Assembly: GCA_000091205.1 (NCBI GenBank)
Contig: AP006501.2
Length of the DNA stretch: 64,000 bases
DNA from: Cyanidioschyzon merolae
Lineage: Eukaryota
Strand: one strand, 5' to 3'
The position numbers and the translations under genes are program-made. A model generated the notes under the pieces. The model ran no database searches. It had not been told where the DNA came from and was given only the letters and a program-made list of their open reading frames with translations. Positions 9,783 through 51,574 of the stretch are shown one piece after another (the first letter of the stretch is position 1; each line of letters starts with the position of its first letter).

Positions 9783-10460
9783 TGGTATACCATCCGAGAG
9801 TAGAGGCTCGATCGATGCAGCGACCGTTCAGGTGCGGACACGAGGCAAGCCAAGCCTGTCGATGACGCTGGATGCGCCACTGCAGTCACCGCTCGAAAGC
9901 AGAACGTCCCTGCGATACCCATGGACCCGTTATCTTGACAAGTGCATTCGATGGGGCTGTGGTGTAGCGCTCGGGATCGCTGCCTTGACGCAGCGCACAG
10001 CCTTTTCGGCTGTTACAACAGCAACGTCTGAGCGCTGGTTGTCGCTGATGCTCGTACCTGGAATCAAGTCGTGCGATCACCGCTCTGTGAGCGCGAAAAG
10101 TGACCATTTTACGGTATCCATGAGTAGCGAAGAATCGGTCGTAAGGCATGCTGCCCGTACCCGTATGCCGCATAGAACTTGCGGGGATCGAAATCTGCCA
10201 ACCGTTCAGGAATCGATAACGAGAACGAGTGCTACGGACGCCATAGCCCGAGTCTGGGGTCGTCCCAGGCTCGAGCGGAATACCCGTGACAAGCCGCTCG
10301 CCTATGGAACGAGTCGTCGGAGTTGGGGTAAGCTCCGTACCTGCCGCCTGAGCGGCAAACGTCTGGCGCGGAATGCTGCGTCTATGCCCGGACGGGAAAG
10401 CGTGTGCAATTTGCATTTGCGACCAGCATCCTGGTCGCCACGGGAAGCTACCGCGTTGAT

Positions 10461-10790
10461 TTGTGCGTATTTTCGACTGATCATCGTTCACGCTCTGTAG
10501 CGAGGCCAGATACTGCGTACCAGAGTGCACCCACCAGCTGTTCGAGCGGAACATCGCTTGCAGCTGGGGGCCGGGCGTATTTTCGACTGATCATCGTTCA
10601 CGCTCTGTAGCGAGGCCAGATACTGCGTACCAGAGTGCATCCACCAGCTGTTCGAGCGGAACATCGCTTGCAGCTGGGGGCCGGGCGTATTTTCGACTGA
10701 TCATCGTTCACGCTCTGTAGCGAGGCCAGATACTGCGTACCAGAGTGCATCCATCAGCTGTTCGAGCGGAATATCGCTTGCAGTTGGCTT
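10461..10790. repeat. 110-bp minisatellite, 3 tandem copies
   Basis: 'tttcgactgatcatcgttcacgctctgtagcgaggccagatactgcgtaccagagtgca' recurs at 10471, 10581 and 10691. Copies 2 and 3 are nearly identical; copy 1 differs at its 5' edge. The overlapping ORFs on both strands are repeat artefacts. Confidence 0.9.
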
Positions 10791-12015: not shown

Positions 12016-15000
12016 GCATGCTGCAACCAGACCGGGGCGCTCTGCAGAGTGCACGCTGGCCACAGGCAGCGTTCGAAGGTAGCGCGCGTTCTCTTCGCGC
12101 GCCTGTCTTGAACGAGTACGAAAGCACACCAACGCACTAGATTGTATGCTCGCGAACGAAAGGTGTTCATTTTTTGATACTGAAGGATGGATCCGCTTCG
12201 AATGAGATGTCCTTGACAATTCATTGACGAGACGCTTGGACGAGGTCACTCATGGAGATGCGTAGCGGGGAGGGCGTGCGACTCGACGCTGTACGCACCC
12301 GGCTAATAGATACAACGACTTTTTACGTATGGCCCAAAGAATGCCGTATATCTTGCATGGGTCGATATAGATGGGCGTAAAACCTGAACCCGATGCTGAA
12401 AGAATGAAATTGTCGTTCTGGAGACCGCGACATATGTCGCGGCCTTTATGTGTACGGGGAGCGCGAATCGAACACCGAGCGCATGACGCGGAGAAACGTG
12501 TTCGGTGCTGTCTGGGAAGCCCCGAGCTATCGCCCTGACAATGAGTTCGAGTACCCGATGCCGCTCATCATGATAGCATACTCGACAAAATCCCCTTCGG
12601 GTCCAAGATGATAAGCTCATAGCGTTGGAACGTAGCGTTCGTGGGCACAAATGCGGTGTGATCACCAGCACGACGATGCAGCATACCTTGGGAATGCACG
12701 ATTGCGAGATATCTGGAATGTGCTCTATGCACATGTTGCTCAAAGCGCGTGGATAAAACCATTCACTTGATCTTCAGGTGCTTGGCATTCGATTGAAGCA
12801 AGTGGTCGTTCTTGCAGCTAGAGATCGACATGGATACGAGTGCCTTCTAACTCGTGTTTGGAGCAACGACTGCAGGGCCGTTCGCACGGCTCGCTGCCGC
12901 AGCCCTATCTGCAATGCTCGAGGCGAGCATGCGGTGTTGCTGGTGCAGTTTGGAGGTCTTGGGCGGAAGCGCGGGCATTCTCGCGCATGCCGCTAATCAT
13001 CGCGCGATTCGGAATCCTCGATGCAGATCAACGGCTGTTCACCCGACATGTAGTGCGATGCTCGCCAGCACCCGTATCATATATTGATATGAGACACTGG
13101 AGTGCTCGCTCTATTCATGCCTTTGGTTATGTTCCGAGCTTTTCATTGGATGTGTAGCCTCTAAATCCCAAGTGCAGCAGGAAGGCCTTGCGAATCCATA
13201 AGTAGTTTAGAGACTCGAGGTTGGTTTTTCACCATAGATCCGTAGACGCTTTGCAGCAGGGAGTTATTACGTGAATGGAATCAGAATGGTTTACGACGCA
13301 TTTGAACAGAGGCTCGTAAAATAAATTATATCGTTATTCAATGTACACGTACAATGCTTCACTCGTCTCCTTTACTCACGTGTGGCCTGGTCAGATCACA
13401 AGCTCTTCAAGTTTTCCATCTTCCTTATTCAAGGCAACTCGTGGGCGCAGCGATTCTCGCCGCAGCGCTGACGACGGGTGAAATCGCTGTCGTTCCATGA
13501 AGAATGCATCACAAGTTCTTCTCTCTAGTTCAATGAACGTGTCACATGATGTAATCGATTCTGTTCGAAACACTAGTCCTCGTCTATTTGTGGTAATCGA
13601 CTATATGGAATTCAATACGAGCATGATGCCGCTCAAAGGGGGCTGATCCGAGAGACTCCCGTTTCGTCTGTTTGCATAGAAAACGGCCTTGGGCTCGCAC
13701 TGAAGGCTTCGCAGGCATTGCCTGCAGCAGAGAATGCGTCTTGGCATTGCACTGCTGGTTCGTGGACGGATCCGGATATCTCGACTTGAGCTCCAGTCCG
13801 GGATTTCCTTACGGGACTTATTTCATCGTGGACAACATCACGGTCGACGGATCTGTGATCCAAAGGAACAGCGTTCGCTTGTGCGAGAAGCAGACAACAT
13901 ACTCGCCGCAGAGATCGTCTCGAAGAAGCCTGCGATCGCAGGCGACGGCACCGGGGCGCAGAAGCGGAGGAGCGTATCGCAGAAAGCCCATTGTACCCGC
14001 CAAGATCAGGCATCGAGCGACGAAGCAAGCGTTCGCGTGCCAAAAGACAGCACTCATAGGAGGAGGATGCCGAGGAGGAGGCGTCGCAAAAGCATAGGAT
14101 CACCTCATTACATCCAAGTCTCGCCGCTGCGAATGGCCCACAGAGTTTGTATACAAGGAAGATGAGAACGGCAGGCGATGCGTAGATGTCCACTTTTGCC
14201 TGTGCATGAAATGCGTCGACAGCAGTCGGGCGCAGCGAAATCGGGACGTCTATGCTGGTGTCAACATGCTTAGATTTGTTAACGACGGAGCTGAAGTGAC
14301 ATGGAAATACCGGCATATTTAAAGCCGGATACAAGAGCTCGGAAAAGGAATCATGCGCATAAATATCCACCAAAAGGTTGATGTAGATGACTATTGGCGG
14401 AGACCCAAAACATAGCGCGTGCGCCCGGGTTACGTGAGTGCACGGTTCTGTTCTATGCGGACATGTGTGTTGCACGGCGCCAATAACTCTGTACCACCCC
14501 CGAAATCCCACAGGCAGAGACGTTTGCTGCTTAAAGGTGTCTTCTGGTCGACGACCTGAAAAGAGTCAGGAGAACAAGCTTTCACAGCGATATCGTGGAA
14601 GGCATGGAGATGTGTAGTTCAGTCGCGAAGCGCGCGACCGTGCGCAGCCCCACAACGCCACCGCCGCGCTGCCGCGTATCCGCGGGAAGATGCCGCCATC
14701 CAAGCGGACGCACGCATCGATCTGCATTCGGGATCATTTTGTTCATATTGGTTCTAAAATATATATATTAGGACATTACTGGACCAAGAGGTACCGTGGC
14801 ACTGCCCCATCGAAATCAAGCCGCTGGCTGGGCAATTCGAATTTTTGGCAGCGCAGCACCGATACGCGCGAACAGATCCCCAGGCACTGTGGACGTTTTC
14901 GGTACAGGAGCCATTTGGGAGTGTTCGCTGCACGATACTTCTACTTGGGCAACGCTGGTCGAGACCGGATCCCAACAGCGTGCACGCCTTTCTGTTTAAG

Positions 15001-21114: not shown

Positions 21115-22261
21115 ATGGATTCGGGACCAAGCAGTTAAATGGCACAACTTGCCTAGCGAGGCGTCCAGCGTTTCGTGCCAGAGACGGTGTAGGCGGTGCT
21201 CGTGCTCGTTACCTGCAATCACAGGTTTCGGATCAAGTGCAAGCGGTGGACGCTGGACCAGCGAGGCGTGGCGTTTACGTCATTTCCATGTGCCGACGCT
21301 GCGTGATACGAAAAAAACAACAGCATCGCCAGATGGTGCGCGTTTTTGGCGCGAGATAAGGCTCTTCCCCGGAACGCAAATCCTATTTCTCACAGGGCAT
21401 CTCCGCAGCTGGTGCCGATTCGAAGAGACCTTCATCCGCCAGCAGCCAAGGGTGCCGAATCGCGACTCCAAAACCCCCTGCTGGGTATTAAGTCGTCGGC
21501 GCCTCGCTGGACGCCTCATGTGCGCATCCGTTTCAGACTGCCTCCCGATGCCGAGCACGTGTCAGCGCGCATGCCACACGGAGCTGGCTTGCCTCTATCG
21601 GAACCAAGAAGTCGACTGCGACGGTCGCATACGGTCGAGGTGCATCTGGCAATCTTCTCGTTGGCGCATTGCCCGAGAAGCGGCTGAGAAGCACCGCCAC
21701 GAACGTCAACGAGGTCTTCCACTTGATTCTGGTTCTCGTTGCAGTGCGCGCATGCCACTATGGAGACAAGAGAACCGGCCCTTGCTTCCAGAGGGAATCC
21801 GCATAAGGTTTGCTGCTTTGGTGCAGCGTCATCTCAAACGCTCACGAATACGCTTTCTCAACGGGGTAATCGGGGATGAGGATCCTAGATACCGCCTGAT
21901 CTCCGGGCCGAGGTTCGCATACCTCGAGCGATTCCTGGAGCTGCCGCTCTGCTTGTAGGCACAGTGCGAGGCAAGCTGCTGCCATGATAAACGTAATCCC
22001 GATAGGTAGTGCCGCCGGATATGACCCTAAACGAAGTGTGTGTCTTTGTGGGTGCGCGGAGATTGGGCTACTCGTTTGTTGAAGCGGATGCGTGTCAACC
22101 AGCATGGATGCAGTTCCATCGGTGTGAGCTGGAGTGTGCAAAACACCGCATAGCCATTCCGTATCCATACAGCAGTAGCAGCAGCAGCAGCAGCAGCAAT
22201 CGTCAGTGAAAGAAAAAACTGTTTTTACGAACACGGACGGTAAATGAATATCAATATATGG

Positions 22262-22720
22262 ACGCCTCCTAGCCGTTTTCGACCGGCCCCCTGTTATCGG
22301 TTCCAGTGTATCCGCTGTACACCACGAGCCTGAGAGGTTGTGCGATAAAGTTAGATCACGTCAGCTCTGCGGCTCTCGTCTCCAGCACAGCATACTGCCT
22401 GATACTGGTAACAGCGTTGAATTCTCGGTTCACGAGCTCCTTGGGTTTATTGCCTCTGGTTGAACACATCCGTGCATGGATCACTAGATCTCGTACCCTC
22501 TGTGCCACTTAAGTCTAGCCTACTTCCCTCTTCTTCTTCATATCACTCGCTCTTCTTCGCTCGATAGTTGGAGCGAAGCGAATTTTTGTCGTTGTTTTCC
22601 GGCACCCGGCGAGGAAGGCACTCCAGGAGCCCCGACGCTCACGTTCATACCTCTGTATTTTTATTTCGTTACATGAACGCACTTTGAACACACCTGCTCG
22701 ATACCACGAAAAAGCACATT
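22262..22720 (-). mobile_element. Mariner-like element remnant, copy 1 (3' end only: transposase C-terminal coding plus 3' flank); transposase sense is the minus strand
   Basis: Block-wise nucleotide homology of about 70% to 33975-34300 (in reverse complement) and to 49965-50450. Sense-strand translation gives 'VAQRVRDLVIH...ELVNREFNAVT', which matches the mariner C-terminal region (HTARAVRDTL...SPDLAPSDYHLF). The copy is truncated on the transposase N-terminal side, before the ferrochelatase gene. Confidence 0.5.
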
Positions 22721-30399: not shown

Positions 30400-32949
30400 G
30401 GTCCGCAAACGTGTCGACGGACGCCCGTAGGACTGCTCAGAGAGGCCATTCCACACGTCTTTTTCAAACTGATGGGTACACGTTTGCGTTGCAATGCGGT
30501 ATCGCCGTCGGTCGAGTGATTCCTCAACCGCTCCGCATCGCTGCAGCGAGAGCTTCTCTTCGTGATGATATGTACGAACAGCGGGTCGCTCAATGAGCCA
30601 ACATCATTACCGGCTGGAAAGGATTTTGCTTTCTCTGACGGGAAGCAGTGGATTGGCTGCTTCTGGGGCTATCGTCTGTGACGACGACGTGCTGATGCAC
30701 GTTTCCAGAGAGCGGTACTGATCTCGAAACATGTCCGAATGGGCAGAACCGGTGCATGCTCCGGGAACAACGCGACTTTATGGTGCGACCTGGCCAAGTC
30801 GCTGCACATTCGGTGCTCTGAAAGAGCAGCACAGGCACAGCATTCGCTCTGGTCAAAACGCGATGCACCTTGTACGCATGGACGAGGTCTGCCAAGGAGA
30901 ACGCGATGCGGTTGCGCTGTCTATGATGAACTGGCAAGAGCCGCCAGATGAGAGCCGATGCCGCGGGTGTGTTTCATGGCCATCGTGGCCCCGTGCGCCA
31001 GCTGCAGCGATGTACCCAGCACCGCAGCATGTGCCTGCAGGGTCCGGCTCGCAGAGTCGATCAGAACTGAATATGAGACGCGCGTCGTGGTCTAAAGCTC
31101 GTCGACACTAGGAGCATCTGCACGGGCGCTGTGGTGCCTCCACTGGTTACGGGCTTTTGTCAAGGATGTATGCAGGAGTTCCTGGTGTCAATCCATCGAA
31201 TCTCTGTAGTAAATAACGCACTGTCATGCGATATTTGCACGCGACAGAGACATTCATCTGCAGGCAGAACGATCGGCATCGTTGTTCTTGTACTTGCATT
31301 GACCGTGGATGCCACTGGACGCTTTCCTGTGCAGCGTTGCGAAGCAAAAAGTGTCGCGTCGACGACAGCTGTGCGTTTGCAAGTACAGCGCTCGTTATGC
31401 ATGCTCATTTTCTACGAATAGTGTGTGTTGAACCCCATGTGCTCTGGGCATATCGGGCATGATGCTGTGTCGACTACCACGCAGGAATATTCTTGGCGTG
31501 TCGCAGGTGCTGGGAATCCCGCCTAGTGTTTCTCTCGGATGACGTTGGGAGATTGACGTCGACGCCCAGGTCAACGAATCCTGACAGCTGATGAGCACGC
31601 CTGGGCCGCACCATAGAAATGTATGTGTAGGCGCAGGCTCTGGTGCCGTGCGGAATGGAGGAAGCGATGCGCTCCTCTCACAGATCATCGGCAGCGGAGC
31701 GTTCGTCGACCTTATTCGGACTGGAGTGATGAAGGGAGAGCGGCTGTGAGCAGTGCTCACATCTACGGGCTCTCACGGAGTGTTTCACTTGAAGCATGGA
31801 TCGTTTCAACGGCCGTGTACGTGCTGCCTTGACAGATGCTGTGCATCGCTACCGTACGATGTGCCAGAAAATCCGGATGATGAGGACCAGGGACAAACTC
31901 GCGCGTGGACGCTCCGCAGAGGAGGCAATCGCGTTTGAAGAAAAAGGGATGGCGATGATGCACTTGAATCGGAGTTTTGTCTGCTGGAAAATACAGCGTA
32001 TGGGACGTGTGATATCAGCGGTCTCGAGTCACGGAAAAGTGAGAGCGGAAAGGCAGCCTCCGTAGGAGCCGTGCTCTCTCGATCGGGGAACACCCAACTT
32101 GTCCGTCTTCAGTTTCGGGCTCCGACTCGATGGGGTACAAGAGGGCATCACACGCCAAAGCAACGAAGCATGCGCTGCGTTCAGCCGTAGCCGCAGGTTC
32201 CGCTCCTGCCCCGTTCACGTTTCACCGCTTCTGACGACGCTTATAAAGTCACGGGGGTGGTATCGAGCTGTGTTCTGCATATAATTTTCAAGACAAGGCG
32301 CCCGATTCCAAGTGCTCGGTGTCCAGACACCCGCCATATGAGTCAACGTGCATGCTGGTCGATGTCATCATCGGATATGTGCTCAATGAACTTTCCTATT
32401 TAGGTAGCTCGCAAACTCGACGGACGCAGCCCTTCATGCATTCAGAGTATACGCAATCCCAAGCGCCCATCCCTTCTGTAAGGACCAAGTTTACGGCGAG
32501 GACGCCAAAACGTTGCAGGAAATGCACGTGAACGGCTCCCGGTATAGGTGTGTACTGGACTCGTTGGAACGGAGCCGCTCGAACTGCCACATATCGTCTG
32601 CGAAAGTGAAACCGAAACACCGACTAGGTATGAGTCAGCGATATCTGAGGCGGCTTTGACACACGTAAGCCGCCTACGCAGCGCACGTCGCACTGTTGTG
32701 TTCGGGATGAAACTTCCCCAGCTGGGCTGGGTGGCACTCAGAGAGCCACCCAGTCTCGTTTACGCTATGAATATAGAATTGGTATCGGCGGGATCCGTAT
32801 TCGTGCCTTCTAGAAGAGGCTGCGAAGCGGGTACGGCACCGGCGCAGGAATGGAGCGCATGCTTTTCCGCATATCGCGGAATAAAGCGAAACGGGTCCAT
32901 TTTGCACACGCAGGCTGAACGATAGTCTTTCAAGTGAATCTCGTTTCAT

Positions 32950-34300
32950 TCCCAGTTGCTGTGTATATTCGGCGGTCGAAACAAATATGAAATGAACACC
33001 ATGGATCGTTGACGAATTGCCTGAAGGATATCTACACATCTTTACTGAACAATGCAAAGAGGGCTGCATTCCTCCTTCGGATTCGTCACACCACAGTACT
33101 CTGATGGTTGACGAGCACAGAAAGAAACAAGTAGATGCGCTGCATGCCAAAACCCGGTATTCACAAAGACTGTTTGCGGTCAATGGGAGACAACGACCTG
33201 TTGTTCACCTTACGGGAGATGAAAGCGACAATAGTAGCCACCATGGGCGTCTCTGTTTCTCGACAGCTCATTCGTATGGTCTCGAAAACACTGGGATACA
33301 ATCGCAAAAAAAGAGTCCTTGTTCAACCACGGCCATTTTCCACCGAAATCGCAACCACAACAAAGATCCTGAAAAGTCACTACCGGTATGAAGCAGAGGG
33401 ACGTGGGTTTGTTTTTTTTCCAGTCGGTGAAACTTCCTTCGGACGAAACGATCGGTGCGTATATGGGTATTCAGGGGCGATGGGCGCCCGGTCTACGTAC
33501 GATCGAAGTCGAAGAGAACGAGGATAACATCGTCTGCTCTAGCTGCAATGGATTCATTTGGTGGCCACAGTTTCGTTCGCAGAGAAGCCACATACCATAG
33601 CACCCTTTTCGTCGATTCATTGAAGACTGTTCTTCGACGCCTCACGGGGTCCTTCTATTAAGCAACCTAGTGTTTGACCATTCCAGTGGCGTTCCAGCTT
33701 TTGCGGATTCTATCTGGTAATATAGCTGCTTTTCATTTCTCCGCACACTCTGTGGTTCATGCCCATCGAAGCACCGTAAGCTGTCTTATAACGTAATGAT
33801 CGCTCCACTGGGCGAATCACTGATGCGTTTAGTACACGGTAACACTCCGAGGCACGTGCTGTCTTTGTTTCGCAAACCCTTCTCCTTCCGGGAAGGTCCT
33901 CGTCCAAGGGCATAGAGAACTGCGTTTATTTCGAAGAAATAAGAAACCTGAGGGGCGAGCTGAGGTGTGCGCACTTTACCAGGTCGCGTTTGAGAAACCC
34001 CAGCGCAGCGCTTTGGCGATAGAAACGCACGCGGAGCTGGCGGAGCACCAAATGGCACAGAGGGCACGCGTTCGAGGACTCCCTGCATTGGTGACTTCAA
34101 CCAGTGGTAATACATGGAAGGAGTTCTTGAACTGAGACTTCAACGCTGCAATTAATAGCAGAAGATATGCGATACTGAAGATGAAACCCACGGAGCTGAC
34201 GTGATCCAGCTTTGTGGAGCAGCATCTCAAGGTCGAATTGCATCAGGAGAAGTTGATGCCAGTGGTAGGTGGCCAGTCAAAAAACGCTGGGAGGCGTCTA
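32950..34300 (+). mobile_element. Mariner-like (Tc1/mariner superfamily) element, copy 2, degenerate; the transposase reading is broken into at least 3 frames on the plus strand
   Basis: N-terminus 'MVDEHRKKQ'. HTH 'ATMGVSVSRQLIRMVSKTLGY' (compare mariner 'LEVSQQAVSNRLREMGK'). DDE-N region 'RIWVFRGDGRPVYVRSKSKRTRI...DSFGGHSFV' (compare 'DEKWIFF..PKRKKSYV...KHGGGSVMV'). The C-terminal module at 33975-34300 is homologous to copies 1 and 3. Boundaries are approximate and TIRs were not resolved. Confidence 0.6.
33135..33661 (+). pseudogene. Frameshifted mariner-like transposase (HTH plus N-terminal part of the DD(E/D) domain)
   Basis: ORFs 33135-33527, 33388-33600 and 33455-33661 overlap in three frames. 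Each carries successive transposase segments, as listed for the copy 2 mobile element. Confidence 0.55.
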
Positions 34301-34365
34301 TGAGAAGGTGGATATATGTACCCTACATGGTGGTGGGGCATTATTTGTTTCACTGACTGTAGCGT

Positions 34366-35118
34366 ATTGGTCACTTTTCACTGTCATGAACGACAGGAAC
34401 TTTTGCGTGCCTCTTCTGTGACTGCTTCCTTTTCCTCGATCCCCGATCTGTGGATTTCAATACGCAGGTCTCGCTTGTCGATCCAGCTCCGCTATCAAAG
34501 AATTTGACGCCCAGAGTGAAGCTCCCGTCTATGCTTCGCTTGGCATTGTCGATCTCTGTGTATACAGCGTCGGTGCGACCCTCGAAGCGCTTGCTCGTCC
34601 GTATGGTCAAGTGTTCCCAGGGGTGTCCAGTGCACCTCCTCCTCCTCAGAGCGCCGTCCTGCCGAACGTTAACGCTTGCTATGTCGCTCGGTACATGCCC
34701 CTGACTGATACGGAACGCTGCCATCGGCGCCCGCACTCCGCTCCCGAGTCCGATGCCGTACCCTACGACCACGAGCTTGTTCTGGGCAACGCTCTCGGCG
34801 AGTGCGCTACCCGACGCACACGAGAGCGCTCACTGTCCCATTCAAAAACGTGTTTGTGGGAAGCGGTGTCGCTCATGGTGAATAAGCACCGAGCGGGAAA
34901 TCCAGGATACGGAACAAGTCGAGCGATATCGATCCGTCTCTGCGCTCTTCGAATAATACCTTGTCGCGTTTTTTTGCACTGGAAGCGAATGCTGCGATGG
35001 CTCAAGCCCAAGTCCGAGACCTTTCCTATGGAGAGAAAAGAGGCAGGGAGCGTCGAAGAGCGTGTCCTCTGACAGGTATGATGCTGCTCGGGATTGTCGA
35101 TTTATCGATTGCTACAAA
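34366..35118. repeat. Direct repeat A1 (about 753 bp), about 99% identical to 37585-38338
   Basis: Base-by-base comparison finds about 8 mismatches in 750 bp (for example ctatcaaag/ctgtcaaag, gttaacgc/gtgaacgc, gaataagc/gcataagc). Both copies give identical 153-aa (+) and 133-aa (-) ORFs apart from 2-3 substitutions. It contains 'gacaggtatg', a possible splice-donor-like site. Confidence 0.9.
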
Positions 35119-35703
35119 GAAGGGCGGATTTTTCAACTAGAAGGATATCCATCGTCTGACGAAACAAGTTCTGTAAACTTTCTGAACGAGCTTGTGAACA
35201 AATCGTTGAAGACGCCGTGGAGGTGTTTCCTCGACAATCCAGCAGCGCGCATAGCAGCGCGCGCGAGTTGCCTTGAAACAGAAAGATCGATGACTTGGAG
35301 AATATTTAATTGCTTCAATTTACACATCATGAATGGAGAAGACTATAGTCTTCTCCATATGCATTGCATCGCGATATCACATAAATGACAAAATTTTGTC
35401 CGAGAACGTCGCATATTGCCTTTTATTCCGATGACGTGACAAACTCCAACGACGAAGAGGCCAATGATCTACATCGAAAAGACGACCGAGAATTCCAAAT
35501 TTTCGTGCGAATCGGTAAATACCCTATTCCTACACATCGAACGTTGAGGATGTGCATCCAAAACAAGTTCGGAAAGAAACCTCAAGGCGGGAGCGAACCA
35601 TGGAGTTCAGGGCTCCACGTTCATCCAACAGAGATGCAGGCTGGGAAGCGGTTGCACCAGGTCGTCTGCAGAGCCTGCCCCATGCTCTCTTCAAATCGAA
35701 TGT

Positions 35704-37002
35704 TTAAATCGACTGACAGATACGCAGCAGCCGCACTCCGTTACCAGAAGCGAGACGCTCTAGCCGCCATAGAGTATGCGCATCGACTGCGTGGAAAACC
35801 TTGTGATCCTGGAAGTCCTTGAGTATTCGTTGTATTTCGTCGCTGTGAAACCGCGGTATTTCCTGGATCACTGGTTGCAAATTCGACGGAAGTTCCTGGT
35901 CCACCCATCGGGCAGCCTGACTGCCGTCAGGGTCCCGCTGCATTGCCGGTGTTGGTCGGTGCAGAACAGAGCCCACAACGCGAGACGCCCGCACACGTCC
36001 GAGGCCCCGAGCGCTGGTCTCCGCGCATAGCACCAGTCCACGTCGCATTCGAGCCCCGAAGCGCGTAAACATGTTCCATGCGTTCAGCGGACGAAGGCTA
36101 CGAAGCGCACTGGCATGCAAGAAACGTCCCTTTTTCTGCGGATGCCGAATGCTCGTGAGTGCATTCAACAAATTCCAATCATCGATTGCAAAGAGCACAG
36201 GAACCTGTCGGACACATTGAAGTTGGCGCAGAAAAAGCCGATAAGTCCGACCAAAGGCATCCAGGTTCAACTCGGCGAGCTCACCTTCCAGTCGGCGGCC
36301 AGATTGCAAGCAGGCATCCACCAGTCCCAACAGGTTGGTATGCTGATCAGTAGACGTGGCGGTCTGGCGCGCCACATCTCCGTCCCGCGCTTCATCATCG
36401 AGGTCACTCTCCCGAAGCAGTTGCTCCGTAGGAAGACAGGTAATGGATTCCAGCGTTCGGGCATGGACCTGGCGACACGCCTGCAGGCTGTCAAGCACCA
36501 GACGAGCCTGATCGAAGAAAAGAGGTTCGCGCAACAAGCTCGCACTCCGTGCACCTCGAGGTCGCGGTGTTAGAACCACGTCACAAGAGTCGCGTTCATG
36601 TAGCCAGTGGTACAGGTTTGGCAGATAGAACACCAGCCAGTCCTGCTCACGAGCTCGCTCGACAGCGTGAAATAGACTCGTGCTCTTCCCGGAACCTGGT
36701 GGGCCACGAAGCAGCACACATCGCGTACCTTGCCAGAGCGGATCAGATCGCTCTTGAACCAGCTTCCACACGTCTGCGTCTGCCTGACGCCAAAGCAGTT
36801 TCAGGGCAGTTTTCGTTTCTGTACTGTGCCGTTTGCTGGCGTCTGCGCCGTGGACCTCCGTCCAACGAGCGAGCACCCCTTTGGGCCAAGCCTCCGGAAC
36901 CAGACGGTGACTCAACACTCGAAACTCATTAACAACAGCTGGGGTATGATACAAACGACCAAGCAGCAGACACGTGCTGAACACTGGCCTGCAAGCCCGC
37001 AT
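35704..37002 (-). CDS. P-loop NTPase, probably mitochondrial ribosomal protein mS29 / DAP3-like
   Basis: ATG at 37002; 432 aa. Walker A 'LLRGPPGSGKSTSLFHAV' followed by 'FYLPNLYHW' (DAP3-like 'IPDAxxW') and C-terminal 'SGNGVRLLRIC' (compare DAP3 GNPRELxxLC). The N-terminus is presequence-like ('MRACRPVFSTCLLLGRLYHTP'). The family call is tentative. Confidence 0.45.
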   Translation of the reverse strand: MRACRPVFSTCLLLGRLYHTPAVVNEFRVLSHRLVPEAWPKGVLARWTEVHGADASKRHSTETKTALKLLWRQADADVWKLVQERSDPLWQGTRCVLLRGPPGSGKSTSLFHAVERAREQDWLVFYLPNLYHWLHERDSCDVVLTPRPRGARSASLLREPLFFDQARLVLDSLQACRQVHARTLESITCLPTEQLLRESDLDDEARDGDVARQTATSTDQHTNLLGLVDACLQSGRRLEGELAELNLDAFGRTYRLFLRQLQCVRQVPVLFAIDDWNLLNALTSIRHPQKKGRFLHASALRSLRPLNAWNMFTRFGARMRRGLVLCAETSARGLGRVRASRVVGSVLHRPTPAMQRDPDGSQAARWVDQELPSNLQPVIQEIPRFHSDEIQRILKDFQDHKVFHAVDAHTLWRLERLASGNGVRLLRICQSI

Positions 37003-37584
37003 GAACAGCTTGAAGCTTGGTGCTCAGGGAGCGTTCCCCGGAACGTATACTTGCCCAGTATTGCTGGGGCCGCCTCGCCAGTCGCCCCACGAGCACCGGG
37101 ACCCTGCGTTGCGATGTTGCGATCCCCGGGGAGCATTACTGAATGAGAGCAAACAAGGATCACCCAGCGCGAAGCTGTAAACGGTATCTAGGAAAGCCCC
37201 GGGTCGTCCGTTCATGACCTTGTCCACTTCATGGCGCGTAAAGCAGACATCCTTCAGGAGAACATGAGGCGCTGACGCGAGCCTGCCGCTGGTCGAGTCT
37301 GCCAGAGGGCCTAGCGCGCTGCTGCGAGCGTTTCACGCGGGCACCAGGGCTTTTCGATAGACTTGAGGACGTCGGCTGGAAGCAAGTCTGCCAGTGATGG
37401 ACACGAGGTGAGTGCATGAGATGTGCGAGTATGCCAACTCAAGCTGGAGCTGTTTCAGAGACAACCCAGACGACATATTTTCCATGGAATAGATGCAATA
37501 ATCTGGATGCGCATACAACATCAGCTGTTTCAGAATATGGAGGAAATGGGTCCAGCGCGCTCCCTCGGGCGTACATACGAACAT

Positions 37585-38338
37585 TTGGGTCACTTTTCAC
37601 TGTCATGAACGACACGAACTTTTGCGTGCCTCTTCTGTGACTGCTTCCTTTTCCTCGATCCCCGATCTGTGGATTTCAATACGCAGGTCTCGCTTGTCGA
37701 TCCAGCTCCGCTGTCAAAGAATTTGACGCCCAGAGTGAAGCTCCCGTCTATGCTTCGCTTGGCATTGTCGATCTCTGTGTATACAGCGTCGGTGCGACCC
37801 TCGAAGCGCTTGCTCGTCCGTATGGTCAAGTGTTCCCAGGGGTGTCCAGTGCACCTCCTCCTCCTCAGAGCGCCGTCCTGCCGAACGTGAACGCTTGCTA
37901 TGTCGCTCGGTACATGCCCCTGACTGATACGGAACGCTGCCATCGGCGCCCGCACTCCGCTCCCGAGTCCGATGCCGTACCCTACGACCACGAGCTTGTT
38001 CTGGGCAACGCTCTCGGCGAGTGCGCTACCCGATGCACACGAGCGCGCTCACTGTCCCATTCAAAAACGTGTTCGTGGGAAGCGGTGTCGCTCATGGTGC
38101 ATAAGCACCGAGCGGGAAATCCAGGATACGGAACAAGTCGAGCGATATCGATCCGTCTCTGCGCTCTTCGAATAATACCTTGTCGCGTTTTTTTGCACTG
38201 GAAGCGAATGCTGCGATGGCTCAAGCCCAAGTCCGAGACCTTTCCTATGGAGAGAAAAGAGGCAGGGAGCGTCGAAGAGCGTGTCCTCTGACAGGTATGA
38301 TGCTGCTCGGGATTGTCGATTTGTCGATTGCTACAAAG
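37585..38338. repeat. Direct repeat A2 (partner of 34366-35118)
   Basis: See A1. Identity stops at '...gctacaaag' on the 3' side and '(tt)ggtcacttttcac' on the 5' side in both copies. Confidence 0.9.
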
Positions 38339-38984
38339 CGAAGAGTCATCGACTTTTCGGAAAACATCGGTTAATTGGCCTGATAGATTCACAGATCTTT
38401 CATCATGATCACTGAGACGAGACTCCAAGGGATAGGTCGATGTTTGTCCTCGTCAATGTCGCAGCGCGAATTGTTGCTCCCGCAAGCTGCCCTGAGACAG
38501 AGGGATAAAAAACTACATGTACGCATGATTTCAGCATGCTACAAGTAATAAAAGGAGCATAAATGAGACTTGTTCATAGCAACTGACGAAACATATCTGC
38601 TACTTACATAAACCTCGTTCAAGATCAGCGCGAGTCACCGCAATGCTCGTGATGCTACGAAATCCAGCGGCAACGCGTCGAATGAGTCACGCTGAAAAGA
38701 CAACTGCGAATCCTAAATCTACGTAAACATCTGTCATTTCGATGCTGTACACATAGAAAAAAACCCGGAAAACCTTCGTACAGGAGCAGAGTAAGCATTT
38801 CCGCGTTCTATATGCATCCGTAACCAGTGTCGCACGCCCATCGCTCGTGCAAACATCGTGCCACAGTAGACCGCAGACACAGATGCTCCAGGTTGAAGAC
38901 GCTCACCTACACTACATGCAGTGCTTCATATTACCAGATCCATAAAATATTTAGGGAAGGGCTCGGATACCTCACCGCAGGTTC

Positions 38985-41900
38985 ATGAACCTGCGTAGAG
39001 CTCATAGAGAGCGCATGGCAAGGGGCATCGATCCCGTGGACGCTGGCGTCCGCTGCGGATGTCCTGCACGTGAGGCACCGGCAACGCGTTCCGTGCTGAA
39101 GCGCCAGCACAAACGTCCGTTGACGCTGAGCTGTATCATGTTCTCGGGACGGAGAGAGCGTGACCCAGCAGAACCCAGAGATCAGCTTCAAGGAGATAGC
39201 TATTATACAGAAGCCGGTAGCACGGAGCAGAACCCGCTTGTCGACCTGGACCTTGTGCGCAGTCGCCGTTTGGCGCGGTTTACCACCAAGTCGACGGCAG
39301 CGGACTCGTCGGGTGCTGTCGCTGAAACTTCTGCAACTGCTGGGCAGCACTCGAGCCGACCGGCTTGTGAGCGACCAGAGAATAAAACTGGGACTGAAGA
39401 GCGAGTCTTGCATCGGGCGGAAAGTGAAAAAGCACCGAGTGTGGAAGCGTGCCCGGCACCACAACGAAAAGCAGCCCCGGCTGTTTCTGAAAAGGAACTC
39501 GTGCACCAGAGCCTCTTGCGCATTTTGAATCTCTCGAGTGCGGAACTAGAAGAAATCTGGGCGAGAGCTGGTGTCGCTGCGTCGCAAGCGCCGACGCACC
39601 TAACCGTTGCTGAACTCGATACGGTGCTGGCGGAACGACTCCAGGATCCTCGCATCGTAGATGCGCTCTCCTACTTGATACTTTGCTACCAACGACTCCG
39701 TCAGGAGCTGGCCTCAATCCAAGCGGCTCGTTCACAGGTGTTGCGTGAGAGCCTGGGCAATGCGCTACCGCTTGTTGTGACCTATGCGCGAACATGTCTC
39801 TGGGAGCCGCACCTCTTCGTCTCAGGTCGTCGTTGGCCAGCGGAGAGCGCTCCACACGAGGCTGCCGCATTATGGCTCGTGGAGCAGTTTCAAAAACAGC
39901 AGATACCAGCAGAGGGCGATGCAGCAATCCTGCCACCAGCCATGTACGCGGACCTGGTGCACTGGTGGGCTCGCGACGCACCCGACGAACTCGAGCAACT
40001 GTTTCCAGTATTCTTTCGTGGCCTGGTGGAAAGCGCTCGTGCGGAACTGGATCAGATTTTTCTGCAGAGGTCACAGCTGTCATGTTTACGAGCTTTGGGA
40101 AGCGCGCTAGAGCCGCATGAGGCCTTGAACGCATTCGTGTCGATGGCGGATTTCGTTGCAGTGGATACCCGAAACAACGTCCGGTCGCTTCTTGGGCCAT
40201 TCCTGACACCAACAGCTCTACACTATGAGGACGATCGCGTTTCAAGGGCGCTCTTGCCGAACAACGTATCAACCGAAAGCGAGACCGCTGAGCGGGACGC
40301 GATCTCGGCTGTGCAGTGGTCTCTGGACACGCTACGCGACGGCTTGTACCGGCTCTTGATGCGACTTTTGCGCGCTGGACCGTATCCTCGTGAGCGAGTT
40401 CTCACCTGGCTGGCGAACCAGCTTAACCAGAATCGGGAAAGGATGAAACTGCAGGCCGCAACCGCAGAAACATGCACGGACGGGTACATGCTGAACCTTA
40501 CGGATGTCCTGCTGCGCCTTGCAGCGCCTTTTGCTGACCCGCGCTCCCCCAAACTGCAGTCCATTCCAATCAAATGTCTATACGATCATCATCGAATCCG
40601 CTTGGCGGAGCAGGAGACGCGCGTCGGATGCGATTATGCGGAAGCGCAGCGTCTACAAGCCGACTATTTGCAGCAGCAGCAGCAGCAGCAGGCCGGGAAT
40701 CCCTACGCATTCATTCCCGAATGTTTTTTCCTGACGACGCGTGCACTTCAGCTCACATATCTGCCATTTTTGCAGTATTATCGAGAGGAAATCTTGCATC
40801 AACTGCAGCGGCTTGAAGAGATGCGCGAGGAACTGAATCTCGCGCAACAGCAACAGCAGCAGCAACCGGTATCTTCGATGCAGCAACTGGAACAACAGCT
40901 GATGCGAAGCCAGTGTGAGCGAGCCATCGCCGGTCTCCGACGTGATCGCCAATCCTGCCTCTTCTATTTGTTCGATAGCGGCTCACTGGATCGTCTTTTG
41001 CAATTTTTAGCTGCGCTGGCGGCATACATCATGCAAATAGCAGGTTTTGCCGGACGCTTACCGCTGCCTGCTCAGGATGCGGCTTCTGTACCCCGGGAGT
41101 ACGCCTTGTTACCCGAGTCAATTTTTGAGCTGCTGGCTGAGGTGCTCCAATCGATCGTACAGCTGCGCTTGCCCGTGCCGCTGACCACGGTGGGCGCCCT
41201 CTTTCCCCAGTTTGTAGAGTTCGCTACCATGCTGCTTTCGAATACGTTCTACTTGCGGAACATACATATCCGCGCACGCTACGCTGAATGGCTCGCACAA
41301 ATGTTCCCGGCGATAGGGAACGAGCTGCGCCATGCGCTCGGAGCAGTGCATCTACCGCCCGAATTCGAGGCCGCTTTTCTCGGCAATGAACAGGTCGTTG
41401 AGAATCTGCCACCAGCTCTGATGCAGCTCTATATCGATGTGGAGCGTACTGGAACGCATACACAGTTCTTCGACAAGTTCTCGATGCGATTCTACATGAG
41501 TGAGGTACTGGTGGCCATGTGGCGGGTCCCGGCGTATGCGCGTGTGCTCCGACGCCTCGCCTCGACGCGAGAGGGACTTTTCGTACATTTCAGCAATATG
41601 CTCTTTAATGATGCCAATTTCTTGCTTGATGAGTCGTTGCAAGCCCTGGCAGAAATCCACGAACTCGAGCGGCTTCTAGAGCCGAATTCGATACAGGGTC
41701 AGGCTCTGGAGCCGCAGGCTCGCGAAGAGAAACGCAAGCGCCTGCTTCAGTTGCAGCGTCAGGCCAAGTCGTTCAACCAGCTTGCCAACAGCAGTATTCG
41801 CTTGATGGTGACGCTAACCGAGGAGGTGCGGCAGCCGTTTTTGCGACCGGAACTGCTGGATCGTCTAACGAACATGCTGAACTATTTCTTGGTGGCACTT

Positions 41901-42458
41901 TGCGGGCCGCGTTGCGAGAACCTCGTTGTTCAGGAGCGTCATCGGTACGAATGGGAACCGCGCCAGCTATTATCCCAGATCCTGCGGATTTATCTGTCGA
42001 TGCACGATCCGCTTCGGGATCGTGACGGCACCAGACGCTTCTGTTGCTCAATAGCAGCTGACGGGCGCTCGTATCGACCGGAGGTTTTCGAGCGGGCGGC
42101 GCAGATAGCTGCAACGCGGGGCCTCTTGACGCCTGCCGAGTGCCAACGATTTCACGAACTCGTCGAGTCCGTGGCGATCTGTGCTAAGGAGCTTGTTGCC
42201 GAGGATGAGGAGCTCAGCGAAGCACCCGACGAATTCCTAGATCCGATTCTGGCAACCCTGATGCAGGATCCCGTCATGTTGCCATCGAGTCGCAAAATCG
42301 TGGATCGCTCGACCATCGTGCGACATTTGTTGAGCGATCCGCACGATCCATTCAACAGACAACCGCTGAGAATAGAGGACGTGATCCCGCAACCAGCGCT
42401 CAAAGAACAGATTACGAGCTGGCTACAAGAGAGACAGGGAACGCGGCGTGTCTCGTGA
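38985..42458 (+). CDS. UFD2: Ubiquitin conjugation factor E4 (UFD2 family) with C-terminal U-box
   Basis: ATG at 38985; 1157 aa. C-terminal U-box: '[48 protein letters not shown]'. The core resembles UFD2 ('[17 protein letters not shown]', '[19 protein letters not shown]'). It contains poly-Q tracts encoded by (CAG)n. Confidence 0.85.
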
Positions 42459-49103: not shown

Positions 49104-49964
49104 AAGAACGGAAGCGCAGCGCGATCAGACGGTACCGAGAGCGCCCGTGGCTATCGCGCTCGTCGGGGTGCAGAGAAAACCGCGGCGAGGCGCGCGGATC
49201 GGCGATTTGAATTTCCTGTGGATGGTGTCGTATGGATGCATGGGAGAAGGTGTCCACGAATTCCGCCATTGTTGTTGGCAACCGGGACAGCAGCCACCAC
49301 TTCAATCCAATATTGTCGAATGCCAGTAGTTAGAAGCGGGATTGGCTTTCAGAGACCATGATTCATTCATGTGAGGCTTCGGATTCTAAGCGTACCGTTC
49401 GTGGTCTTTGCGATTGGCTCACGCGAACGTCGCGCTGTTGTGCTGAAGCGGCCCGATATCACTCGGTTGTGCAGTTTCCGATCTTTCGATATACCTGCGT
49501 CAGATGAAAATGGGAATGAGAATCATAAGATCTGCTCGCACTTCTCGGTTTTACGGACTATTTATTCGATTTGTAGTTTTAGTGGTATAAGTGCAGCAGT
49601 GAGGGTTTGTGGACTCAGAGGTAGTTTTTCGGATTCTTTGTCGTGTTTTTCAGAGTGAATTGCTCGGCGCGTTGCGCTTGAATTCATTACGTCATTATCC
49701 GTACGATCATTCGGGACGCGGTCGAACGCGGTCTTATGAAACAAGAGATTAGAGTATCCAGTGTTTGGGTAGAAGCCTCCACGCTTCTCCGCATCCTTGC
49801 GTGTCGCTTGACCGGCTCCTGCGTTCTTCAAGTTTTCGATCACTCTGTGCCAAGACAACTGGCGGGTGCAGCAATTTGCGCCGTTCGACTGATAAGTGAA
49901 AATATGGCCGGGAACACGATAAACATTTCACGACAATGTAGGGAAAATTAGTGTCCATTCGCAG

Positions 49965-51250
49965 ATATCTTGCAGCTTTTTGCTGGCCGGCCATCAGCAA
50001 CCGGTTTCAGTGTAGCCAGACATGCTTCGAGCCTGAGAGGCTGCCCCATAAAGTTAGATAGCCTCAGCTCCGCGGGTCTCGTCCTGGGCACCGCGCATCC
50101 CCTGATATCGATGGTGGCAAGGAAGTCACGGTTCACGAACTCCATGCAGGCACTGCCGCTGGTTGAACGCACCTCTGCAAGGAGTCCCCGAACTCGTATC
50201 TTCTGTGCCACTACAATCTCGTCATCGTGCTGTCGGGCAAACACATTTTTTGTCATCTATAGCTTCTCTTCTTTTCCTGTTTTGCTGCTTGCGCCTCTTC
50301 GCTCAATGGTTGGCGAGAAGGGAATTTTTATTGGCTTTTTTTTGTCGAACCCGGCGATGACGGCCCTCCAGGATCCTCGACTTGCATGTCCATACCTCTC
50401 ACATGGATTTGTTATCTTTGATAATGAACGCAATTCTTTGTGCCCTTAGGTGAGAACCTTCTCTGAGGGTGAAGGACCTGCGGTGGAAAGTCGACATTTA
50501 CCCTGGTGTCACTGTGTGCTGAACGCTTCAGCGATTCGCCAAACGGTGCGGTCATTACGTTTCAGGATGGAAAACACTCCTTCGACAGGGATGAACTTTC
50601 GTGAGCACGGAGATATGATAAACAGATCTGTCACGATAGAATCGCCAAGAGCTCGAACGCAAAGGTAAGAGCAATCGTTCCGTTGTTCAATAGAAGGACG
50701 GCGCCGGACGTCAGCGAAAAGTCTTCGATGATTCGACAAAGTGGCTGGTGCTGTTTTACGAGCCCCCTCTGCACGAACGAACCTGTGGCCGCGAACTGAA
50801 TCCACTGCAGCTAGAACAGATGATGATATCCTCATTCTCGTTCAGTTCGATAGCACATACAACGGGCTCTCTCTAAGTACATACCCATGGACGCCCCCAC
50901 CGTTTCGTCCGAAACAAGTCTTATTGACCGAAAGAACGGACCGACGTTCCTGTACTTTATATCGATCGCTGGGTTTCAGGAATACTGCAGTAGCTGCACT
51001 TTCGGAGGACGAAGGCCGTGCGTGAACTCGGGCTCTTCTTTGGCAACAGTATCCCAGTGTTTTCAGGATCACCGGAACAAGCTGTTGAGGAACAGAGACC
51101 CCTGTGGCACCTACTGTATTTGCTTTTGCATCCCTTAAGGCGGCAAACGGGTCGTATGCTATCATGTACCTCAACCATTCTTCGAGAACATCAGTTTTTA
51201 TTATGGAGCGCATCTCCTTCTGTCTATCCCAGTGTTCCTCAACCATCTGA
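49965..51250 (-). mobile_element. Mariner-like element, copy 3, degenerate; transposase on the minus strand
   Basis: Minus-strand ORFs: 'MVEEHWDRQKEMRSIIKTDVLEEWLRYM...ATGVSVPQQLVPVILKTLGY' (N-terminus plus HTH), '...RISSSVLAAVDSVRGHRFVRAEG' (DDE-N), and C-terminal 'IVVAQKIRVRGLLAEV...SACMEFVNRDFLATI' (compare mariner 'TARAVRDTLE...SPDLAPSDYHLFAS'). Nucleotide homology to copy 2 runs at about 75% over more than 1 kb. It lies directly upstream of Rpn6. Confidence 0.6.
50509..51246 (-). pseudogene. Frameshifted mariner-like transposase (N-terminal HTH plus DDE-N part)
   Basis: ORFs 51246-50842 and 50835-50509 are on different frames. They align at protein level with the copy 2 fragments (for example GVSV..QL...V.KTLGY and SFGRN...V.GY). 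Confidence 0.55.
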
Positions 51251-51574
51251 ATACTGTTGTCTGACTGGCCTGAGGGAAAAGGGCAGTCCTCCTTTACTAT
51301 CTCGTTGCGAATATATATCCTACAGAAAATTCATTTACGATCTGTTCGGTACATTGCGTCGCGGTGTCGATCCCATGCCATACACTGCGAAAAAGCATCC
51401 GATGACACACAGCGGACATGGAACCGAATTCAGCTTGGAAGACAATACATCGATCAGGTGTCGCTCGTTTCAGCTGTGAACCGTGCGCGTCAACGGCGCT
51501 CTTGTTCGAGCAACAGCATACGTAGGAGCGAGCCTTGGACAAGGCTTCAGCGTTTCGGCTCGTTTTCACAGTAC

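Follow-up and report, generated by a model that had tools for sequence, protein, structure and literature searches.

Near-identical 751-bp tracts on both sides of the mS29 gene of Cyanidioschyzon merolae: a probable gene-conversion tract in an old dispersed repeat

Results

Two near-identical tracts bracket the mS29 gene

The window analysed here (the whole stretch of 64,000 nucleotides, to which all positions refer) belongs to nuclear chromosome 19/S (1,282,939 bp) of Cyanidioschyzon merolae 10D. It contains the gene of the small ribosomal subunit protein mS29 (DAP3), which lies between two direct repeats, the 751-bp tracts A_L and A_R (Table 1). The product of this gene matches XP_005538723/BAM82687 exactly and carries the name mS29 in UniRef. 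Its open reading frame (ORF) matches the Pfam family DAP3 (PF10236; E value 1.6e-11). Our results suggested that the two tracts were probably made alike by gene conversion between two old copies of a dispersed repeat, here called E.

Table 1. Positions of the tracts, the repeat copies and the genes of the mS29 locus
Feature	Position	Strand	Description
mS29/DAP3 gene	35704..37002	-	432 aa; CMS040C/BAM82687; sole gene between the two A repeats
A_L	34369..35119	+	left 751-bp tract; 5' module of repeat copy E_L
A_R	37588..38338	+	right 751-bp tract; 5' module of E_R; in the divergent mS29-Ufd2 spacer
E_L	34369 to ~35675	+	A_L + C_L
E_R	37588 to ~38834	+	A_R + C_R
C_L	35120..35675	+	old continuation right of A_L; occupies the stretch after the mS29 stop codon
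C_R	38339..38834	+	old continuation right of A_R; ends ~150 bp upstream of the Ufd2 start codon
E3	12986..14420	-	third, diverged full-length copy; A3 13587-14420 and C3 12986-13580, contiguous
C4	49408..49942	-	fourth, partial copy; C module alone, directly after the IE3 end, no A between
Quasi-palindrome	38326..38370		spans the right edge of A_R
U spacer	37003..37587		unique 585 bp from the mS29 start codon to A_R
IE2	32921..34367	+	degenerate repeat; right end (HMM ~34357-34367) abuts A_L
IE3	49914..51449	-	second full copy, then C4
IE fragment	22194..22684	-	3' part alone; not followed by A or C
Ufd2/E4 gene	38985..42458	+	ubiquitin-chain elongation factor; BAM82688; right-hand neighbour

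The tracts were delimited by self-BLAST of the window and by base-by-base comparison. They align over 751 bp without a gap and are 98.9% identical, the eight mismatches lying at 34396, 34494, 34670, 34815, 34825, 34855, 34881 and 35104 of the left copy. Both edges are sharp, with random identity directly outside. The segment between the tracts (35120-37587, 2468 bp) has mS29 as its only long ORF, and this ORF ends 584 bp from the left tract and 585 bp from the right one. We read this symmetry as coincidence, because the left 584 bp are repeat-family sequence and the right 585 bp are unique. In an nhmmer self-search the right spacer, U, returned itself alone, and it was matched by none of the profile hidden Markov models (HMMs) of the repeat modules IE, A and C.

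An earlier, sequence-only reading of this locus had described most of this arrangement. Its repeat pair proved to be real, with coordinates (34366-35118 and 37585-38338) that were off by 1-3 bp. It was right about the roughly eight differences and 99% identity, about a unique segment of about 2.47 kb holding a DAP3-like gene on the minus strand, about the distance of about 585 bp from the repeat edges to the ORF ends, and about an interior without gag or pol.

Each tract starts with GGTCAC and ends with CTACAAAG; the sequence to the left of the structure reads ...GCGTATT and that to its right CGAAGAG.... No target-site duplication was found around either A copy or around the whole A-B-A structure (GTATT versus CGAAG). 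At neither end of A, on either strand, was there a poly-A or simple-repeat tail such as marks a short interspersed element or another non-LTR retroposon (LTR, long terminal repeat); the 3' end of C is diffuse. A comparison of the ends of IE, A and C gave no significant inverted match, that is, no terminal inverted repeats.

The tract pair is reproduced in independent assemblies

The comparison contigs L001-L027 came from JGI, ENA and Logan, the metagenome contigs among them being short-read assemblies. The exact mS29 protein and close variants were found on many metagenome and Logan contigs, and all four repeat junctions were present in independent metagenome contigs. The junction of the left flank with A_L is carried by L011; L001, L010 and L012 cover Ufd2, the complete right copy and mS29 and reach into the left copy. 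Three contigs (L013, L014 and L015) contain both copies in full and align collinearly to the window over 15-21 kb, with 99.1-99.2% identity. Full A_L copies were recovered from L013-L015, L017, L019 and L023, and full A_R copies from L001, L010, L013-L016, L020 and L021. Most of the short contigs measure 2.4-3.2 kb and end inside the repeats, which is expected of a real structure, since de Bruijn assemblers break at a true two-copy repeat.

The sequence-only reading had also allowed for an assembly artefact, in which a single copy would have been wrongly expanded to two. Only the high identity of the two copies speaks for it. The junctions and both copies are reproduced by independent assemblies, the short contigs break as they do at a true two-copy repeat, and the 10D genome was finished telomere to telomere (PMC1955436); we therefore regard an artefact as practically out of the question. 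The A-B-A structure is real, and it is old enough to be common to all sampled strains.

The tracts are the 5' modules of an older repeat family

When the window was searched with A by nhmmer, a third copy, A3, was found on the minus strand (E value 7.8e-36, about 60% identity), with homology that breaks off at the right end of A. Homology of the same depth continues to the right of both tracts. The continuation C_L is about 60% identical to C_R, C3 and C4; the right flanks align over 450-550 bp with Smith-Waterman scores of 57-67, against a shuffle mean of 13 (standard deviation about 1.8; for C_L, score 57 and standard deviation 1.7). Single-sequence nhmmer searches with C_L gave E values of 3e-20 to C_R, 2.6e-28 to C3 and 1.2e-12 to C4; among the right flanks of A_L, A_R and A3 the values ran from 1e-20 to 3e-28. 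The partial copy C4 was found by the profile HMM of E with an E value of 1e-40; the profile HMM of C gave 4e-124, a value to be read in the light of C4 itself being among the sequences from which that model was built.

All E copies are thus about 60% identical to each other throughout, except A_L and A_R at 99%. Sliding identity drops from 0.96-1.00 to about 0.5-0.6 exactly at 35119/38338, the border between A and C. Beyond this border C_L and C_R align to C3 from 12-17 nt past the A edge, C_L from 12 nt. The copies E_L, E_R, E3 and the partial C4 sit in unrelated flanks; what they have in common is the right end of A and A3 and the continuity of C. E is therefore an unclassified dispersed repeat family of about 1.3 kb, consisting of module A followed by module C, with at least four copies in the window (the copy counts of E and IE all refer to the window).

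Modules A and C are contiguous in E3 and about 60% identical to E_L and E_R in both parts, so A and C form one old unit. It follows that the A modules of E_L and E_R are expected to be about 60% identical as well, unless they have been homogenised. Moreover, since C_L matches C3 from 12 nt past the A edge, E_L was complete before the homogenisation, rather than a junction of IE and C into which A was dropped.

At the orthologous loci of Cyanidiococcus (L007-L009), A, C and E had no blastn, tblastx or nhmmer similarity. A 26-mer of the left terminus occurred in JGI metagenome contigs in the two known contexts only, and no further young copies were found there.

A 292-aa ORF at 13633-14511 on the minus strand overlies E3, and long ORFs occur there on the opposite strand as well. 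The 292-aa ORF is probably spurious, since no Pfam family matches it and the consecutive series of protein accessions in the genome annotation does not include it. To the left of E3, the window has a tandem repeat at 10465-10787 (period about 110 bp, about three copies, 96-98% identity), inside or next to the overlapping ORFs at 9832-10554.

Left and right tracts share their variants

Polymorphism was scored in 16 full A copies from 10D and 11 contigs. There were 27 variable sites in the 751 bp. The same two alleles segregate at the left and the right position at 22 of the 27 sites, none is fixed between the positions, and the A copies do not group by position. At two sites (34601/37820 and 34637/37856) both 10D copies have G and T, and all 14 other copies have A and A. 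Because these alleles are specific to 10D and present in both of its copies, they require a transfer between the copies after the event that founded the pair. Within one contig the left and the right tract differ at 8 (10D), 7 (L014), 6 (L015) or 2 (L013) sites; differences between strains at the same position reach 16. These shared variants indicate that gene conversion between A_L and A_R is probably ongoing.

The tracts are at least as polymorphic as the adjacent non-coding DNA (27 sites in 751 bp versus about 1% in the flanks).

Module A carries no recognisable gene

None of the ORFs in A, E3 or IE has a Pfam match. Each of the six frames of A showed 5-9 synonymous versus 17-21 non-synonymous changes; as no frame has a synonymous excess, there is no coding constraint on A. 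A segregating 1-bp deletion breaks the 153-aa ORF of A. Among 1.84 billion representative proteins, the 133-aa ORF of A found its own cluster and weak, repeat-inflated HYR/CARDB matches that we judged spurious, and no other protein cluster resembles an ORF in the 751-bp unit. Rfam gave no match at the gathering threshold in the whole window, nor at E values up to 1 in 34200-35300, and ARAGORN found no tRNA. On these grounds we rejected both a protein-coding unit (no Pfam match, no synonymous excess, an ORF-breaking deletion) and an RNA gene (no Rfam match or tRNA). As far as these sequence comparisons go, A is non-coding and effectively neutral.

A quasi-palindrome spans the right edge of A_R

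The right edge of A_R in other strains (L013-L015) reads GATTGCTACAAAG followed directly by CGAAGAGTCATCGACTTTTCGCTTTGTAGCATC, which forms an almost perfect hairpin of about 22 bp. The 10D sequence lacks the outer arm: it has GAAAAC in place of CTTTGTAGC, and the outer stem is lost. Predicted DNA folding energies were -20.4 kcal/mol (z -9.7) with the sequence of those strains and -5.6 kcal/mol (z -0.8) with that of 10D. The change in 10D looks like a hairpin-templated (quasi-palindrome) mutation in one lineage.

The IE repeat and the genes around mS29

About 10-35 bp separate the left edge of A_L from the end of IE2, a copy of a second repeat family, IE. IE2 and IE3 are about 68-70% identical; the family measures about 1.4 kb and has 2.3 copies in the window. 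The sequence-only reading had seen in IE2 a mariner-like copy ending at about 34300. That end was not borne out, as the HMM runs on to the left repeat, and the mariner-like label found no Pfam, NCBIfam or PDB sequence support. At E values up to 1-10, no match in these three collections was found for the IE ORFs, for their conceptual translations or for P0076, a 234-aa ORF that other strains keep at the IE3 locus. A protein search with the IE ORF returned its own orthologue and one weak match only. IE resembles IS630/Tc1/mariner elements in its length of about 1.4 kb and in degenerate ORFs that have, by our own reading of motifs only, a helix-turn-helix-like and an 'SP..IPVE..FS.LK'-like stretch. 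Unlike them, it has no transposase domain detectable by profile and no terminal inverted repeats.

Two composite structures were considered and rejected. A combined IE and E element does not agree with the copies, as the association occurs in two of three IE copies and the fragment at 22194-22684 is without A or C. A single DNA transposon made of IE, A and C would need terminal inverted repeats linking the three, and there are none.

On the right of mS29 lies the gene of Ufd2, an exact match to BAM82688 (Pfam Ufd2P_core, E value 1e-157, and U-box). A further neighbour, BAM82689, is an MFS transporter, and other neighbours carry Pfam PALP+CBS and Sec1 domains. Cyanidiococcus yangmingshanensis (L007) and a related metagenome contig (L008) likewise show the order Ufd2 - mS29 - CBS - Sec1, and the Cyanidiococcus mS29 orthologues are 69% identical. 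Since the gene order is kept, mS29 is ancestral at its present position. The mS29-CBS spacer measures 1.37 kb in Cyanidiococcus versus 5.3 kb in 10D, and the extra DNA of 10D is repeat sequence. Within this enlarged spacer, about 2.5 kb to the left of IE2 (30400-32920) have no match elsewhere in the window and no counterpart in the 1.37-kb spacer.

The mS29 coding sequence of four contigs has no nucleotide difference from 10D, and that of two others has two silent ones (L001-L006). The non-coding DNA flanking the gene differs by about 1% between strains. This contrast suggests strong purifying selection on mS29.

Many environmental assemblies are 99.1-99.4% identical to 10D over 8-21 kb, all repeat insertions included. 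Natural populations very near 10D are thus well sampled in public metagenomes.

Discussion

Our results suggested that A_L and A_R are a homogenisation tract in two old E copies, produced by ectopic gene conversion or homology-directed repair. We give this reading a probability of roughly 60%. Two old E copies, in the same orientation on either side of mS29, would have diverged to about 60% identity. A single homology-directed event would then have replaced the initial 751 bp of one of them by sequence copied from its partner. This founding event would have been ectopic gene conversion, or repair of a double-strand break templated by the partner copy at a distance of 3.2 kb. The strains sampled differ from each other by about 0.6-0.9%; the event would date back to an ancestor common to them all, and the copied tract would extend from the 5' end of the E unit to the internal quasi-palindrome. 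One founding event fits, because the edges of A_L and A_R are the same in all strains sampled. Short conversion events since then would swap variants, so that the two 751-bp tracts evolve in concert. A crossover between the tracts would loop out mS29, and selection would presumably act against such deletions.

A founding event directed by homology, and not a non-homologous insertion, is what we infer. Quasi-palindromes are known as sites of breaks and template switches, and the one at the edge of A_R, or the adjoining IE repeat, may have had a role in starting the break.

Several points weigh against gene conversion. Homologous recombination works poorly on sequences of only 60% identity. To the left of the 751-bp tract no homology was detected, so a classical two-sided conversion is not demonstrable. 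The 5' end of the E unit is fixed only to about 100 nt, as A3 is weakly similar over the first 120 nt. IE3 is joined to C4 without A between them, which means that A can behave like a cassette. The shared polymorphism may in part be inflated by assemblers that thread one collapsed repeat path twice (the copies in L013 differ at 2 sites); the two 10D-specific sites are free of this weakness, but they number only two.

The main rival is a non-homologous duplicative insertion of the 751 bp at a site 2.5 kb away, as templated filler at a break or as a non-autonomous cassette that favours the 5' border of C, with conversion later on. In its favour, the tract edges are sharp on both sides and the left flanks have no common homology; the C module without A at IE3-C4, the closeness of A_L to the end of IE2 and the palindrome at the edge of A_R can be read in the same direction. 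However, A and C are contiguous in E3 with homology straight across the junction, and because C_L matches C3 from 12 nt past the A edge, the insertion must have landed exactly where A belongs. In addition, A is without terminal inverted repeats, target-site duplication or poly-A tail, and the metagenome contigs hold no other recent copy. For these reasons we consider an insertion unlikely, while taking it more seriously than any other alternative. Far less probable is a stronger form of it, in which A would be a non-coding cassette of about 750 bp with its own, perhaps hairpin-primed, way of copying that is site-specific for the 5' border of C, the pair at mS29 being its only recent products. 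If true, a eukaryotic genome that is among the poorest in repeats would harbour a site-specific element not described before. We give just as little credit to selection that keeps the tracts identical as an acting pair, be it of regulatory or boundary elements around mS29 or of a duplicated non-coding RNA gene or promoter. In favour of this, every sampled strain has the structure and A_R lies in the divergent mS29-Ufd2 promoter region; but A is no less polymorphic than the non-coding DNA beside it, an indel segregates, Rfam has no match even at an E value of 1, and the Cyanidiococcus orthologous loci showed nothing comparable.

It is very improbable that mS29 was captured or is surrounded by an LTR-type retroelement or its two LTRs, although the geometry is that of an LTR pair: direct repeats of equal length and about 99% identity flank 2.5 kb. 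The tracts have the termini GG...AG instead of TG...CA, lack target-site duplications and show no evidence of a primer-binding site or polypurine tract. There are no gag, pol or reverse transcriptase matches; the interior is a single ancestral host gene, which has the same neighbours, Ufd2 and CBS, in Cyanidiococcus, and homology extends beyond the supposed LTR on one side only. Moreover, the finished C. merolae genome was reported to have no LTR retrotransposons, 26 non-LTR elements and 8 class II elements (PMC1955436). The sequence-only reading had proposed a solo-repeat pair of an unknown element; an old dispersed family does surround the gene, but its copies are not LTRs and no gene was captured. 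That reading had also named a recent duplication or a conversion tract. Conversion is the part that is favoured, by the ~60% homology past the edge and by the shared polymorphisms. A simple recent segmental duplication of unique DNA is not supported, since homology continues rightward and the window has two further diverged copies. As evidence against itself that reading had named, finally, a unit belonging to a dispersed high-copy repeat that has no special relation to this gene; this applies by half, the family being dispersed but the 99% identity specific to this pair.

Gene conversion between E_L and E_R would place the locus among known systems of ectopic conversion and concerted evolution, examples of which are the CMT1A-REP pair flanking human PMP22 and the conversion of delta/Ty LTRs in yeast. 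As in those systems, a gene is flanked by paralogous repeats that point the same way, very high identity is confined to a sharply stepped block within older homology, variants are common to the paralogues, and recombination within the pair could delete the gene between them. The present case is far smaller in scale (751 bp, at a distance of 3.2 kb), its older homology is on one side only and, at about 60%, unusually low for starting homologous recombination, and no deletion or duplication alleles were observed.

IE and E may also be compared with the 'novel interspersed repetitive element' of C. merolae, which is unclassified, has 253 copies with a mean length of 3.2 kb, makes up about 5% of the genome (Nozaki et al. 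2007, PMC1955436) and was defined by a truncated ORF weakly similar to WSV486 of white spot syndrome virus (WSSV; PMC1955436). Going by its description and not by the WSV486-like ORF, that element resembles IE and E in being unclassified, dispersed, intergenic, of the same genome and present in several copies per 64 kb; IE2, A_L and C_L together measure about 2.75 kb, against its mean of 3.2 kb. In contrast, there is no family match for IE or for A and C, and the IE ORF is almost without protein relatives, which argues against a large recent family.

In conclusion, the structure around mS29 is best read as an ordinary outcome of processes already known, rather than as a new type of mobile element. 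The window holds about 8 kb (12%) of diverged interspersed repeat, more than simple similarity searches reveal. C. merolae 10D is widely used as a minimal model eukaryote; its homologous recombination is very efficient, and its repeats are very few. The location of mS29 (CMS040C) between recombination-prone direct repeats matters for gene-targeting designs, for read mapping and for short-read assembly, the last because most metagenome contigs break at the A repeats. Concerted evolution of repeats 3.2 kb apart, kept across natural strains, would mean that ectopic recombination shapes even the genome of C. merolae.

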